64,000 bases of DNA from a virus (IMGVR_UViG_3300048606_000166:1-64000), one strand, 5' to 3'. Positions 1 to 44,576 are shown, numbered from the stretch's first letter. Notes: generated by a model not told the origin, from the sequence alone. Numbers and translations are program-made.

Positions 1-2
1 TC

Positions 3-218
3 AAGATCGCTGCGAAGCCCGTCAACTTCGCCGCAGGAGACGACGTCATCACGGAGACCGACGAGATCGCGATCTTCAGGGCTAAGCCTTTGGACAAGCG
101 CGTCACACTGCACGGGATCACCGTCATGCACTTCGAGGACGGCAAGATCGCCAAACAGTGGCAGTACGCGAATTCCCTTGAGCTTCTGGCCCAGCTCGGC
201 ATGATGCCCCCCAAATAG
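3..218 (+). CDS. Ester cyclase / SnoaL-like protein, 3' part (host gene, 5' truncated by window)
   Basis: Open frame from base 3 to TAG at 216-218 reads ...VTLHGITVMHFEDGKIAKQWQYANSLELLAQLG, a typical SnoaL-like C-terminus. Confidence 0.6.
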   Translation, partial: KIAAKPVNFAAGDDVITETDEIAIFRAKPLDKRVTLHGITVMHFEDGKIAKQWQYANSLELLAQLGMMPPK

Positions 219-228
219 AGCGTCCTTT

Positions 229-378
229 AGATACGCGCGACGCCGCTTCGTCACGATGATCGTCGACCATAAGAACAAGCGGCTCATGGAAGTCGTCGAA
301 GGCACAGAGGGTGCGGTTCTGCGCGCAGCGCTTGATCACATCCCAGGCAGGGAAAACGTGCAATGGGTGGCGCCTACT
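229..378 (+). pseudogene. ISL3-family transposase remnant
   Basis: FVTMIVDHKNKRLMEVVEG...AALDHIPGRENVQWV resembles the DDE_Tnp_ISL3 core; similarity stops after ~50 codons. Confidence 0.55.
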
Positions 379-418
379 TCTTCTGCAGGCTCACCAAGCC
401 GCGGCAGAGCCGGTCGAT

Positions 419-457
419 GGAGCCAAAAAAAACCGCCTCGGCGGGTTTTTTGGCTCC
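419..457. terminator. Bidirectional intrinsic terminator
   Basis: ggagccAAAAAAAAccgcc-tcg-gcgggTTTTTTggctcc: GC hairpin with A-tract on one side and T-tract on the other, directly 3' of the tRNA-end fragment. Confidence 0.75.
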
Positions 458-475
458 AGCGCCAGGACTCGAACC
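451..475 (-). other. Prophage attachment junction: 3' end of a tRNA-Asn (T-loop, acceptor strand, CCA)
   Basis: Minus strand GGTTCGAGTCCTGGCGCTGGAGCCA; the acceptor strand implies U1-C2-C3 and G73 (Asn-type); tRNA pairing breaks down 5' of the T-loop. Confidence 0.75.
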
Positions 476-735
476 CGCTGAACGACGACGACCCTCCACT
501 TCCCACCGGTACCCCAAGCACTTCGTCATTGCCGGAAGTGACGGGAGAAGTGGTAGCAGTCGCTCAGCAGTCGGACCTGGACCCCGTGGTCAACGCGCTG
601 CGGATGGGGCTCGAGAAGGCCATTGCTGAGGGTCTTATCCCAGAGGCCGCCGAGATAGCAACCGCCCTCGCCGCGCGCGCGCAGAGCAAGCAGGCCCCCA
701 ACGTGGTCAAGCTCTCGACGCGGCGGCCGCGATGA
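451..735 (+). pseudogene. Severed 3' tail of a phage gene spanning attP (probable integrase C-terminal extension)
   Basis: Frame reads through the att core (WLQRQDSNP), has no own start, and its TGA overlaps the next ATG (732-735). Confidence 0.5.
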
Positions 736-941
736 GCGCGCACGACGAGCTTCGAAGGATCTTCGCGAACGTCGACGAATCGCGCCTGGACCCCGAGCCG
801 GATCCCTGCTGCGGCCACTGCCACAAGCACGTCACCGTCGATTTCCCACGGGAGTGGAACGACGGCGATCTCTGCCCTGACTGCCTCCTGGTCGTCGCCG
901 AGTTCGCGCGCGCTCTCGTCACCCAGGAGCCCGGCCAATGA
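732..941 (+). CDS. Hypothetical protein, CxxC...CxxC
   Basis: ATGA overlaps at both ends; CGHC and CPDC motifs. Confidence 0.65.
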   Translation: MSAHDELRRIFANVDESRLDPEPDPCCGHCHKHVTVDFPREWNDGDLCPDCLLVVAEFARALVTQEPGQ

Positions 942-1174
942 GCGCGCTGCCAGACACCCTTGGTCCCTTGGTCGCGGCAGCCGAAAAGCTGGTCGAGCTT
1001 GTCCAGGGCGCGCCGGTCATGCTGGCGTTCGCGAAGGATGGCGCCGGCCCGTTTCAGGCCATCGAGGACGACCACCTTCTCGGCGGTGAGGGCCGCATCC
1101 GTCGGGCCGCTGAGCAGCTTCGTCAAAGGCTGCTCGACCACGACCGCGCCGAACTCTTGAGGGGCGGACGATGA
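938..1174 (+). CDS. Hypothetical protein
   Basis: ATGA-coupled chain, phage-like codon usage. Confidence 0.6.
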   Translation: MSALPDTLGPLVAAAEKLVELVQGAPVMLAFAKDGAGPFQAIEDDHLLGGEGRIRRAAEQLRQRLLDHDRAELLRGGR

Positions 1175-1410
1175 CACCGCGGCATCTCGCTACCGCGGTC
1201 GCCCAATGGCGCGCGCAACCGCTCCGCGCGCGCCGCGAAGCTATCGCGTTCTTCCGGGCCGAGGCCGAGCAGTCGCGCGAATGGGCCAATGATCCGCCCA
1301 ACTTTGAGGCCGCCCACCATCTCGAAGACGCGTCGGCGCTGGATGCCGCGATCCAGCTCCTCACCAACGCTGCGACCCGCAAGCCGCCGCAGCGCAAGAG
1401 GGGCCGATGA
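1171..1410 (+). CDS. Hypothetical protein
   Basis: ATGA-coupled chain. Confidence 0.6.
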   Translation: MTPRHLATAVAQWRAQPLRARREAIAFFRAEAEQSREWANDPPNFEAAHHLEDASALDAAIQLLTNAATRKPPQRKRGR

Positions 1411-1673
1411 GCGGCTGGGCCTCCAAGCGCTGGGAAGCCTTCGCGCACTACATCGACGCCGACGGCGCGCCCGCCTGCTCGAAGATGCGCCGGTCCGACG
1501 GCACGCCACACCTCGCGCCGTTCCTGTGCGACTGGGTCGAGCTGCGCCCGAGGAATCACCTTTGCGCATACTGTCGGCGCCTTCGCGGCGGGCATTGCGT
1601 CTGCGGTAAGTGCACGGCCGCGCGCGCCGATCGGAAAGCGGCCGTCGCGCGCCGCTCGGGGGTGCGCGCATGA
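1407..1673 (+). CDS. Hypothetical Cys-rich protein
   Basis: ATGA-coupled; CAYC and HCVCGKC motifs. Confidence 0.6.
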   Translation: MSGWASKRWEAFAHYIDADGAPACSKMRRSDGTPHLAPFLCDWVELRPRNHLCAYCRRLRGGHCVCGKCTAARADRKAAVARRSGVRA

Positions 1674-3097
1674 TGCCCGCCGCCGCCACCCGCGAGCCGA
1701 AGCAACTGATGCCCGCGCAGGGGCGTATCCCGCCGCACGACCTCGAGGCCGAGGCGGCATGCATCTCGGCGTCGCTCCTCGAGCTCGAGGCCTACGTCAC
1801 CAGCGCCAATATCCTTATCCCCCAGCACTTCTACTCGGAGGCGAACCGCTGGATCTACGAGGCCATCGGCCTCGTCTACCAGGCCGGCACGCCTGTCGAT
1901 GTGGTCAGCGTGAAGCATCAGCTCGAGGTGATGGGCCGCATCCAGCAAATCGGCGGCAGCTCCTACCTCGCCCAGCTCGTCGACTCCGTCCCCGCCGTCG
2001 CCCACATCGAGAACTACGCCAAGATCGTTCGCGACCATGCGCGCACCCGCGCCGTGATCGTCAAGTGCCAGGAGCTCGTCGCCGAGGCCTACGTCGGCGT
2101 GGCCGGCGAGCAGGGGGAAGCCTTCCTCGATCGGTGTCAGACCGAGATCGCCGAGGCCTGCGACGTCGAAGAGCGCTCGCCGATCGTGAGCGCGTACGAG
2201 CTGACCGACGCGTTCATGAAGTCGCTCCACGCGACTGACATCGACACGCTCGGGCTGAAGCTCGGCTACATCGACCTCGACAAGATCCTCTCGCTTCGCA
2301 TGGGCGAGGTGACCGTCATCGCCGCCCGCCCCGGCATGGGCAAAACGTCCTTCATGATGGGCGCGATCATCAACCTCGCGTGGCCCCAGCAGCGCGACCC
2401 GGAGGATGCCGAGCTGCCGACGGCGGCCGGCGTCTTCTCGATCGAGATGCCAAAGGAGCAGCTTTGGGCGCGCGCCGCCTGCGCCCATGGATACGTCGAC
2501 TACGGCAAGCTGCAAAAGCGAGAGCTCGACGGCGACGACCACGGGCGGCTCGCCCGCGCCTGCGAGGACCTCGCCCACCTGCCGATCTGGATGGACGAAA
2601 CCCCGAGCCTATCGATCGGCGCCTTCCGCACGAAGCTGCGCTTGATGAAGCACAAGGCCGCGCGCGCCGGGTACAAGCTGCGCATCGCGGCCATCGACTA
2701 CATGCAGCTCATGATCTCGGGCAAGCGCGGCGTGCCGCGCGAGCAGGAGATCGCCGAGATCAGCCGGAGCTTGAAGCACGCGGCCAAAGAGGAGCGGATC
2801 CACATCCTCGCCGTCGCCCAGTTGAACCGCGACGTCGAGGACCGCTCGCCGCCTATCCCCCAGCTCTCTGACCTTCGCGAGTCGGGCGCCCTCGAGCAGG
2901 ACGCCGACAACGTCCTCTTTCTTTACCGCCAGGAATACTACGAGATTCTGCGGCAAAAAGAGGTCACCGAAGAGACGAAGGGCACGGCCCAGGCCATCCT
3001 CGGCAAGCAGCGCAACGGCACCACCGGATCGGCGCGCCTGAAATTCTGGGCGGCCATGACCCGGTTCGACAACTTCACCGACCGCGATTGGCAATAG
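1670..3097 (+). CDS. dnaB: Replicative DNA helicase DnaB
   Basis: PPHDLEAE N-terminus, Walker A AARPGMGKT, FSIEM, IDYMQL, QLNR, LSDLRESGALEQDAD, KQRNG. Confidence 0.96.
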   Translation: MMPAAATREPKQLMPAQGRIPPHDLEAEAACISASLLELEAYVTSANILIPQHFYSEANRWIYEAIGLVYQAGTPVDVVSVKHQLEVMGRIQQIGGSSYLAQLVDSVPAVAHIENYAKIVRDHARTRAVIVKCQELVAEAYVGVAGEQGEAFLDRCQTEIAEACDVEERSPIVSAYELTDAFMKSLHATDIDTLGLKLGYIDLDKILSLRMGEVTVIAARPGMGKTSFMMGAIINLAWPQQRDPEDAELPTAAGVFSIEMPKEQLWARAACAHGYVDYGKLQKRELDGDDHGRLARACEDLAHLPIWMDETPSLSIGAFRTKLRLMKHKAARAGYKLRIAAIDYMQLMISGKRGVPREQEIAEISRSLKHAAKEERIHILAVAQLNRDVEDRSPPIPQLSDLRESGALEQDADNVLFLYRQEYYEILRQKEVTEETKGTAQAILGKQRNGTTGSARLKFWAAMTRFDNFTDRDWQ

Positions 3098-3168
3098 CCG
3101 ACCGCGCTCGGGGGGAAAGTAGCACCTAGATAGCGTCTAGTTAGTTCCGGCAGTCGAAAGGGGGGGAC

Positions 3169-3999
3169 ATGCGTAGAGACACGTGGACACAGATCTTGCC
3201 GTGCGACCTGAACGAGGTCGAGCGCGACGAGCGCGCGCGCGCCGGCATGGGGACCGTGCGCCAGCTGGTGCTGATGAAGGAAGAGCACTCGGTCAAACAC
3301 GCCGAGATGAAAGCGGGGGAAAAGGAGCTCGAAAAACGGATCAAGGCGCTCGCCGTAGCCGCGGAGACCGGGCGCGAAGAGCGCGTCGTCGAATGCTACG
3401 AGAGCCCGAACCTCGCGACGTTCCGCGTCGAGTTCATTCGGATGGACACTGGCGAGTCGTTCGACACCCGTGAGATGGACGAGGACGAGCGCAAGAAAGC
3501 CAAGCAGCGCTCTTTCGAATACTCGCCCGAGATTGTGTCGGCCGCCGAAGCCGAGCGCAGGGTGCAGGCCAACCGCAAGAAGGTGACCGAGCTGAAAAAC
3601 TGGGAGCGCCGGCGCGACGTCAACCGAATGGACGCCGAGCGCGAGCACGGCATCGAACGCGCGGCGGCGCCGCCACCGGCGGAAACCCCGGCGGATTTCG
3701 AAGGCCCGGGTGTGCTCGCCGGTGCGTTGCTCGATGCCGAGCCGCCGCCTGCCAGGCACCCGACCGATCCGGCCCCGCCCCCCTTCCACCGCGACCCGAC
3801 CGCCAAGCCCGGATCGATGGCGAATCCGCGCGACCTTCCCGATCCGGTGCGGTTCGACGACGATGCGCCGCCCGAGCGCCCGGGCGCCGACCTCACCGAT
3901 GACGAGCTCGAAGTCGAGAAGCGCACGGAAGAGGCGCGGCTCGGCAGCGCTGACAACCCGAGGCCCATCGGCCCGCCGCCGCAGGGCGAGAGGCATTGA
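3169..3999 (+). CDS. Hypothetical phage protein (coiled N-terminus, Pro-rich C-terminus)
   Basis: 276 aa ORF with GGGG RBS; TGATG overlap with next gene. Confidence 0.75.
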   Translation: MRRDTWTQILPCDLNEVERDERARAGMGTVRQLVLMKEEHSVKHAEMKAGEKELEKRIKALAVAAETGREERVVECYESPNLATFRVEFIRMDTGESFDTREMDEDERKKAKQRSFEYSPEIVSAAEAERRVQANRKKVTELKNWERRRDVNRMDAEREHGIERAAAPPPAETPADFEGPGVLAGALLDAEPPPARHPTDPAPPPFHRDPTAKPGSMANPRDLPDPVRFDDDAPPERPGADLTDDELEVEKRTEEARLGSADNPRPIGPPPQGERH

Positions 4000-16817: not shown

Positions 16818-17428
16818 ATCTGACGCCCCAAGAATTGCGCATGATCCGGCACGCGGTTTTGGCGACGTACGAGGAGCCCCGGTCGGAACTTCTCGCCAAG
16901 CTCGACGCCGAGATCTCAGCTCAAGCCGTGGGGCAGCTCGTCTTTCGGCTCGAGCTCGCCCTCTGGTCGACGGTCGCGACCGCGCGAAGGCAGAAGCGCC
17001 GCGGCGATGAGATGCCCGCGCCGCCGCGGCTCTGGGCCCCGACGATGAACGAATACAAGGGCATCGCGAGCTTCGAGGTGACGAAGCTGAAGAAGGCCAT
17101 CGACGAGGCCATCTTGCGCACGAAGGCGCTTTACCCGCGCTGGGGGTGCGGTGTGACAGAGAACGCCAGGCTCGAACGGGGTAAGCCCGTCGTCAGGCGG
17201 CACGGCGGCCGCCCGCGCCTCGTCGTCGTCGAGCGGGAATCGAACCGCCCGCCCGACGAGCTTTCGGCTGATGCCATAGGGGGAAAGGTGCCGATCGACC
17301 GGCTCGTCGCGGCCTGCATCTTGCGCGACGATAACCGCGAGTGGTGCCTTCGCTACGCGAAGTGGACGCCGGTGCCGAGGGGCGCCGGCCGTGTCATCGT
17401 TTCTGTTTACGAGCTGCTCGAAAAGTAG
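16814..17428 (+). CDS. RusA-like Holliday junction resolvase (C-terminal half)
   Basis: PDE....GGK.PID.L....IL.DDN acidic motif pattern. Confidence 0.65.
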   Translation: MNLTPQELRMIRHAVLATYEEPRSELLAKLDAEISAQAVGQLVFRLELALWSTVATARRQKRRGDEMPAPPRLWAPTMNEYKGIASFEVTKLKKAIDEAILRTKALYPRWGCGVTENARLERGKPVVRRHGGRPRLVVVERESNRPPDELSADAIGGKVPIDRLVAACILRDDNREWCLRYAKWTPVPRGAGRVIVSVYELLEK

Positions 17429-20515: not shown

Positions 20516-20530
20516 CCGTCACCCCGTTTG

Positions 20531-20602
20531 AGGCGCGGATGGGATTCGAACCCACGTTGGACGGTTTTGCAAACCGTTGCCTAGCCACTTGGCGACCGCG
20601 CC
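20531..20602 (-). tRNA. tRNA-Cys (GCA), CCA not encoded
   Basis: GGCGCGG/CCGCGCC acceptor stem, ACGGT-TTGCAAA-ACCGT anticodon arm, GGTTCGAATCC T-loop, U73. Confidence 0.92.
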
Positions 20603-20610
20603 AAAAACTG

Positions 20611-20682
20611 CTCCGGTGCGAGGGCTCGAACCTCGGACCCGGCGGTTAACAGCCGCCTGCTCTACCACTGAGCTACACCGGA
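20611..20682 (-). tRNA. tRNA-Asn (GTT), CCA not encoded
   Basis: TCCGGTG/CACCGGA acceptor stem, GGCGG-CTGTTAA-CCGCC anticodon arm, GGTTCGAGCC T-loop, G73. Confidence 0.93.
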
Positions 20683-44518: not shown

Positions 44519-44576
44519 TGGTGCGGCTAAGCGCCCACAACTCCGGCCGGTTGCGAATGTGAGAGACTTTCCTTAG

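Follow-up and report, generated by a model that had tools for sequence, protein, structure and literature searches.

A prophage junction in a Polyangiaceae tRNA-Asn gene and an attachment site that probably lies within the phage integrase gene

Near the left end of the sequence studied here, the 3' end of a tRNA-Asn gene is read in frame into a coding-like stretch whose stop codon overlaps the start of the next gene. This raises the question of which gene the stretch belongs to and what becomes of that gene when the phage integrates. The window that we analyzed comprises bases 1 to 64000 of an IMG/VR virus record of 83,868 bp (CheckV completeness, 82%). Our main reading, to which we give a probability of about 0.9, is that positions 451 to 735 are the attL of a temperate phage of about 99 kb, integrated in the T loop of a tRNA-Asn gene of a member of the Polyangiaceae.

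Both ends of the prophage and the joined integrase gene

The 25-mer at 451-475 (plus strand) is the reverse complement of a tRNA-Asn 3' end, CCA included, and occurs once within the window, where 0 copies are expected by chance. ARAGORN and Rfam called no tRNA at 451-475 but called three tRNA genes elsewhere in the window, Cys and Asn at 20530-20682 (minus strand) and Thr at 44576. A search for an empty site, using a pattern of hairpin plus tRNA end and one genome per species, returned a single contig, DATHES010000114.1 (L002), from a Polyangiaceae metagenome-assembled genome (MAG). In this unoccupied site, the sequence of 451-475 forms the final 25 nt of an intact 76-nt tRNA-Asn(GTT). Window positions 1-475 match L002 2997-2522 with 98.3% identity, and the match ends exactly after 475. 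Thus, 451-475 is the host tRNA-Asn 3' end, foreign DNA starts at 476, and positions 1-450 are host chromosome left of the prophage. An exact 30-nt search of IMG/VR across the phage junction of attL gave no match, and this prophage was not found in 201 genomes of the host's family.

A hairpin that is bidirectional in form occupies 419-456, with folding energies of -35 kcal/mol on the plus strand and -33.7 kcal/mol on the minus strand (z about -3.9; 0 of 200 shuffles as good). It is preceded by a run of eight A and followed by a run of six T, and a simple terminator scan overlooked it because of a bulge in the stem. The empty site has this hairpin too, which identifies it as the terminator of the host tRNA gene. 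The first-pass annotation had described a terminator adjoining the stretch and also acting left to right, which agrees with a hairpin stable on both strands. Between the upstream host gene and this terminator, an open frame with weak coding statistics covers 229-420; visual inspection suggests part of an ISL3-type transposase, and the frame is also found at the empty site.

The frame that reads WLQRQDSNP over the tRNA end is open from 229, with an ATG at 256, and closes at the TGA 733-735, which shares an ATGA with the ATG at 732. Both the in-frame reading of the tRNA end and the overlap with the next gene had been annotated correctly. The stretch had also been said to lack a start of its own, which is not the case, since ATG 256 and, within the phage part, the possible starts GTG 538, GTG 550, and ATG 604 are all in frame. 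The gene caller annotated 256-735 as a chimeric 159-aa "protein," P0001.

No integrase was found among the ORFs at the end of the record. A protein near the record end is also encoded on a 53.5-kb JGI contig, Ga0455850_0000049 (L009), which is 100% identical to record positions 69883-83868 over all 13,986 bases of the overlap fetched and extends past the record. By this identity, L009 carries the far end of the same phage. On its plus strand, about 15.9 kb beyond the end of the record (L009 18944-20626), lies a gene for a tyrosine integrase of 560 aa, here called IntX, which is missing from the source's gene list and reads into the 5' part of the split host tRNA-Asn. The right flank, L009 20599-21101, corresponds to L002 2532-2030 (98.8% identity), that is, to the other side of the same tRNA-Asn. 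Both flanks thus map to one host locus. The prophage totals about 99.3 kb, consistent with a completeness of 82% for the 83.9-kb record. The attL and attR sequences come from two different assemblies, and no single contig with both ends was found. The first-pass annotation had predicted that a plus-strand tyrosine integrase at the far end would run into an intact tRNA-Asn with the same core; the integrase and the core (11 bp) were found as predicted, whereas the tRNA there is not intact.

IntX has a PF00589 domain at residues 230-482 (1.4e-11, above the cut-off), and alignment A1 identifies the invariant residues R258, H441/R444, H467, and Y476 (Arg, His-x-x-Arg, His, and Tyr). The protein ends with ...DSNLGPGG (...DLQRDSNLGPGG), and translation stops at a TAA within the antisense of the tRNA anticodon loop. 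Joining the ends in silico at the core, L009 ...GCAGCGGGACTCGAACC to window 476 onward, gave a predicted attP junction that is in frame and encodes a protein of 641 aa without internal stop (IntP). Residues 1-641 of IntP align with residues 1-639 of P0002, an integrase of related phages, in one BLASTP alignment of 53% identity that runs straight across the junction. No attP junction of this very phage was found, and its uninterrupted IntP is absent from the protein collection searched. In the lysogen, compared with the circle, the last 85 residues of the integrase are replaced by LGPGG, and the last 86 codons of int (stop included) now stand at the left end, at 476-735, directly behind the host tRNA terminator. 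The proposal that integration truncates int is thus upheld (IntX, 560 aa; joined form, 641 aa): with attP inside int, integration cuts off the C-terminal tail of the integrase. From the sequence, such a split integrase appears highly probable.

The att core and the split tRNA-Asn

The core GGACTCGAACC (11 bp; window 465-475) comprises the tRNA-Asn T loop with 2 bp to either side and marks the crossover region; it is the sole stretch common to attL, attR, attB, and the in-silico attP. Exact copies were present only at window 465-475 and at L009 20599-20609, and the core is read in the same frame in IntX (attR) and in the window tail (attL). The shared core had been taken to be the whole 25-nt tRNA end, and this has to be corrected to 11 bp. 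The remaining 14 nt (451-464, minus strand) are the host-derived last nucleotides of the tRNA-Asn left at attL, identical to L002, and attR has phage sequence in their place. They contain the acceptor 3' strand, the discriminator, the CCA, and 3 nt of the T stem. As the phage shares 465-475 alone and 451-464 is purely host, WLQRQ is part of no phage protein. A second copy of the 25-nt tRNA end was not found on the 83.9-kb record; the internal tRNA-Asn at 20610 differs at 6 of the 25 positions and is the phage's own gene.

In the attP joined in silico, CAGCGGG-ACTCGAA-CCCGCTG, the 7 nucleotides of the T loop are flanked by a perfect 7-bp inverted repeat. The corresponding host sequence, CCAGG-ACTCGAA-CCTGG, is the tRNA's T arm. 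The core sites of tyrosine recombinases usually have two inverted half-sites flanking a 7-bp overlap, and the attP palindrome would correspond to two such half-sites with their 7-bp overlap. No arm-type repeats around attP rose above shuffled controls.

The attR remnant of the tRNA gene (L009 20585-20660, minus strand) consists of the 5' two-thirds of the tRNA joined to phage sequence. In this remnant, the T stem is 3 nt short, the GCCA end is absent, and the acceptor stem has a mismatch. Infernal scored it at 42 bits, compared with 67 for an intact tRNA-Asn (the phage's own copy), ARAGORN found no tRNA in it, and its minimum-energy fold is not a cloverleaf. By these sequence measures, the host tRNA-Asn is split and is not rebuilt by integration. 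The phage itself carries a tRNA-Asn(GTT) gene at 20610-20682 (minus strand), called by ARAGORN and scored at 67 bits with Rfam. Its anticodon arm and variable loop are identical to those of the host gene, its D loop has a one-base deletion, and the acceptor and T stems account for the remaining differences through paired changes. In its T loop, GGGCTCGAACC, there is one mismatch to the core, which falls within the 7-nt loop, and hence the 7-bp overlap, and would spare the phage's own gene as a target of the integrase. The phage tRNA-Asn likely replaces the split host gene. In the empty-site assembly (8.4 Mb; one MAG, possibly incomplete), one tRNA-Asn was found, and the other BLAST matches were to tRNAs for Arg, Lys, Met, and Phe.

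This arrangement looks like tRNA-dependent lysogeny outside actinobacteriophages. Mycobacteriophages with this mode of lysogeny have a short core, and their integration does not rebuild the tRNA (Guerrero-Bustamante and Hatfull 2024, PMC10865867). The prophage likewise has a tyrosine integrase, a core of about 10 bp in a tRNA gene that is not rebuilt, and its own tRNA-Asn(GTT) at 20610-20682. It differs in that its host belongs to the Myxococcota rather than the Actinobacteria and in that attP is inside int. At the level of sequence, the prophage matches the definition of tRNA-dependent lysogeny (PMC10865867).

The detached tail and related integrases

The detached 3' end of int has two parts, both on the plus strand. 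Positions 476-558 encode the rest of a disordered linker, in frame with IntX across the core. This linker is not conserved between relatives, and its counterpart in P0002 (residues 513-587) has pLDDT values below 30. Positions 559-735, stop included, encode a conserved helical-hairpin tail that is 70% identical to the C terminus of P0002 and has a basic end (NVVKLSTRRPR). The GC contents by codon position over 478-735 (0.72/0.51/0.74) are coding-like, if weaker than those of the adjacent genes. A HMMER search with the 94 residues translated from 451-732 against 1.84 billion representative proteins gave four matches: P0001 (self), P0002, P0003, and P0004. In P0002 (644 aa; E 1.8e-11, 70% identity) and P0004 (588 aa), both of which have a Phage_integrase domain according to Pfam, it is the extreme C terminus that matches. 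P0003 (E 2.2e-07) is a TPR-repeat protein with TPR and AAA domains by Pfam and without an integrase domain, and we took its match as unrelated to the tail. A Pfam search with the tail itself gave no match. The confinement of the integrase matches to C termini supports that the tail belongs to an integrase, and with the in-frame join to IntX, it bears out the earlier suggestion that the tail is the C terminus of int.

In the AlphaFold model of P0002, the catalytic part is confident, and the residues below a pLDDT of 30 (513-587) include those encoded by the core. They are followed by two helices (586-609 and 612-629), and the block means of pLDDT are 86 to 94 over residues 591-620. According to this model, the stretch of int that contains attP codes for a disordered linker joining the catalytic domain to the tail, and integration removes a small helical hairpin with a basic end. 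Compared with the relative L005, 34 codons of the tail are identical, 6 are synonymous, and 18 are nonsynonymous. As the third codon positions are conserved too, what is conserved may in part be the DNA sequence itself. Starts at GTG 538, GTG 550, or ATG 604 might also yield a free tail peptide in the lysogen.

P0002 is encoded on three metagenome contigs (L004 to L006) with the gene order, on one strand, int (644 aa), 129 aa, 92 aa, DnaB, 259 aa, 258 aa. The DnaB, 92-aa, and 258-aa proteins of these relatives are 55 to 70% identical to products of window genes at 1413-3996, and the genes preceding int run colinear with the prophage's right end. The uninterrupted order from int to DnaB fits the earlier proposal that int arrives directly before the DnaB operon on the circle.

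In most members of the integrase family, only about 10 residues come after a conserved AIPEL motif, which marks the linker and tail as an addition. They occur in 9 of 16 related integrases on IMG/VR phage contigs; eight of the nine are in the tail family alignment (A3; 12 members), and L016, with a long linker and a C-terminal extension, was counted and left out of the alignment. The long C-terminal stretch of L024 reads through a whole tRNA-Ser and may therefore be an integrated form, so it was not counted. T-arm-like palindromes are present in the linker DNA of several tail-bearing integrases. A relative of IntX was found in 86 of the 201 genomes of the host's family (Polyangiaceae) that were searched, and antisense reading into a tRNA gene (tRNA-Ser or tRNA-Thr) was seen at 3 of 8 loci examined. 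The peptide GVGQ recurs in the unconserved linkers of L020, L022, L025, L026, L030, and P0016. In L022, L025, and L023, it is encoded at or beside palindromes with a 7-nt spacer, such as GGTGGGC-CAAGTTG-GCCCACC, and these palindromes may be att cores for a target other than a T loop.

A second integrase, Int1 (505 aa), is encoded outside the window at L009 15555-17072, about 12 to 13 kb beyond the record end, and is 46 to 71% identical to the joined integrase. We considered tandem elements, a big phage with Int1 and a small element with Int2, and rejected them: L004 is colinear throughout and simply lacks Int1, so that the extra Int1 gene is the only difference upstream of int, which indicates one phage and no tandem pair. 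Int1 has CTGGACATAAGCCAT where the att core would match, and this 15-mer recurs inverted 255 bp downstream with 14 of 15 positions identical (L009 17016-17030 and 17286-17300). The segment between the repeats encodes, on the opposite strand, a tail homologue, and flipping its 255 bp in silico fused Int1 in frame to this homologue, giving a protein of 550 aa. Farther on, L009 17403-17807 holds a putative xis gene.

Logan assemblies use k = 31, and three independent 30-nt offsets in contigs of sample SRR35383827 fit this value. In this sample, one contig stops at L009 17045, and another (L034) corresponds exactly to L009 17289-20628. The ends at 17045 and 17289 are the break points expected with k = 31 if reads of the flipped junction are present. 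L034 stops at 20628, exactly 30 nt past the first att-core base, where a break would be expected with both attR (lysogen) and attB (empty site) in the sample. These contig ends are indirect evidence that the tail segment of Int1 inverts and that SRR35383827 holds both occupied and empty sites. The helical tail could even be a recombination-controlled on/off module of this integrase family, with the int at the att site toggled by integration and excision and Int1 by a 285-bp invertible segment; we regard this idea as speculative and rather doubtful. Toggling of the tail by integration and excision would in addition make the replication operon dependent on excision and put the phage tRNA-Asn in place of the host copy. 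If the tail is indeed such a module, switching of the C terminus would be a general, programmable directionality device in myxobacterial phages and not a quirk of Mx8.

The replication operon, rival readings, and known systems

The first gene after the tail (732-941, plus strand; GC3, 0.84) has its ATG in the overlap with the tail stop and encodes a 69-aa protein with a CxxC...CxxC pattern, for which a Pfam search gave no match. It is followed in the early/replication block by a DnaB-type replicative helicase (1670-3097, plus strand; PF03796, 3.4e-72; PF00772, 3.7e-27), which is 70% identical to the DnaB after int in L005. On the circle, int and the replication block are co-oriented and the DnaB operon begins with a gene whose start codon overlaps the int stop, whereas in the lysogen the operon stands directly behind the strong bidirectional hairpin. 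In L005, a 35-nt gap without a terminator-like site follows int, and the ATGA coupling is not conserved.

A scan of window 1-3200 gave no sigma-70-like site, such scans being weak in GC-rich myxobacterial DNA. One sigma-70-like match lies directly before the int ATG; it is conserved in L005 and fits a Shine-Dalgarno AGGA equally well. The motif ACGTTAGGATG is conserved 6 to 7 nt before the int start codon (L009 18929-18937 and L005 802-811); it may serve as a Shine-Dalgarno sequence (AGGA) or, in a leaderless promoter, as the -10 element. A repeated element, tTCTCCCTTGTGCATTGG-N9-CCGTAGGGTAT, occurs in at least 13 plus-strand copies with ATGAAC within a few bases after it, at L003 5660, 7726, 15104, 15841, 19709, and 19856 and in L009 5497-9603 (prophage 69.6 to 88.8 kb). 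We read it as promoter-like (TTGTGC, 17 nt, TAGGGT), placed before small paralogous genes that start with MNSE. All copies are on the plus strand and directed towards int, and none was found in 1-69 kb. Copies of this repeat probably explain the breaks of the record and of a Logan contig at L009 4679-4708. Two minus-strand genes (L009 12846-13640) break the plus-strand flow upstream of int.

From this layout, the replication operon would be read from upstream phage promoters only once excision rejoins the circle. The gene order, the ATGA overlap, and the failure to find a promoter before the operon are consistent with such an uncoupling, and a lysis/lysogeny switch based on it would fit the anatomy; we advance it tentatively, at somewhat short of even odds. 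The split might, however, be real and have no regulatory meaning, with an operon that has its own promoter, an IntX that acts like IntP, and a linker that merely tolerates the site. This we consider a possibility of appreciable weight, if clearly below an even chance. The many family members that end about 10 aa after AIPEL do not need the tail, the core falls within the linker of pLDDT below 30, and promoter scans are insensitive in GC-rich myxobacterial DNA. On the other hand, the tail is conserved across very divergent integrases (A3), the tail of Int1 on an invertible segment points to a regulated on/off state, the tail stop overlaps the start of the next gene, and in Mx8, the change of C terminus alters the specificity of the integrase (PMC6070905).

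Two further readings question the assignment of 476-735 to int. The stretch could be an independent small gene of 43 to 65 aa, starting at GTG 538, GTG 550, or ATG 604 and coupled to the next gene, with its likeness to integrases due to domain shuffling. Besides these in-frame starts, such a gene would have GGGAG just before GTG 550, a GC3 that rises to 0.80 in 601-735, and a product modeled as a self-contained helical hairpin. But GGGAG is spaced just 2 to 3 nt from GTG 550, and the M at 604 is not conserved, being T or V in relatives. Moreover, the search gave no free-standing homologue of that size, as all three significant non-self matches are 588 to 1056 aa long and two of them are integrase C termini. 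With a frame that is continuous with IntX across the core and a join that is colinear with P0002, we consider a small gene improbable. As for P0001, the 159-aa ORF at 256-735 has an open frame with an ATG and an entry in the protein database, but it spans noncoding host DNA, the terminator hairpin of -35 kcal/mol, and the antisense of the tRNA end. Its GC contents by codon position over 256-420 (0.67/0.53/0.60) are not coding-like, and its host part stands at the empty site without the phage part. We therefore give virtually no credence to a real host-phage fusion gene and retain the reading of 476-735 as the detached 3' end of int.

The first-pass annotation had stated that Mx8 and Mx9 carry attP inside int. 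This is stated for Mx8, with a similar principle in Mx9, in PMC6070905, according to which Mx8 integration makes a new int 3' end and alters the specificity of the integrase rather than inactivating it. By analogy with this report, IntX and IntP may differ in activity or directionality. In the Mx8 genome (AF396866), we located a T-arm-like palindrome within int, GAGTACGGG-ACTTGAA-CCCGTACTC, 118 codons before the stop, preceded by the rest of a tRNA 3' end, CCA included. Mx8 int lies in a long same-strand block, with the repressor gene first and the replication genes later. The two phages thus share a myxobacterial host, a T-arm-like palindrome with a 7-nt spacer in the int frame about 85 to 118 codons before the stop, an int that precedes the replication genes within a long early block on one strand, and integration in a tRNA gene that swaps the Int C terminus and leaves the catalytic domain whole (here, IntP to IntX). 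They differ in that the integrases are distant (BLASTP E values of 0.008 to 0.05 over the catalytic motifs), P0002 had no Mx8 match by tblastn against 50,697 phage records, and the tails have no detectable homology (hhalign probability, 0.35%). In addition, Mx8 attP holds the whole tRNA 3' end with CCA, and by standard attP logic its integration would restore the tRNA, whereas here 11 bp are shared and the tRNA is not restored. Mx8 has a genome of 49.5 kb, compared with about 99 kb here, where the host belongs to the Polyangiaceae.

In archaeal viruses and plasmids, SSV-type "suicidal" integrases have their own gene partitioned by integration (PMC8371274). The likeness is a recombination site within the integrase's own gene; the difference is that here only an accessory tail is removed and the whole of PF00589 stays in IntX. 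With its catalytic domain in one piece, IntX is predicted to remain a probably active integrase in the prophage. The inferred uncoupling of the operon has a mere analogy in the circularization-dependent expression of Tn916-type elements and in lambda sib retroregulation. There, integration or excision alters which sequences follow a promoter across the att joint.

What is new here is an Mx8-type attP inside int with a different, tail-bearing integrase family. An attP inside int was previously treated as a peculiarity of Mx8 and Mx9, and the present case indicates that the design reaches further. It also suggests a design rule, in which the DNA site occupies codons of a disordered linker, where the protein tolerates it. 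In this prophage, two rare features occur together, an attP inside int and what looks like tRNA-dependent lysogeny, the latter so far described in actinobacteriophages. The anatomy raises the testable ideas that the replication genes are on only after excision and that the directionality of recombination is set by the tail. Finally, integrases with an 11-bp core could serve as integration tools for Sorangium-type myxobacteria, which are hard to engineer.
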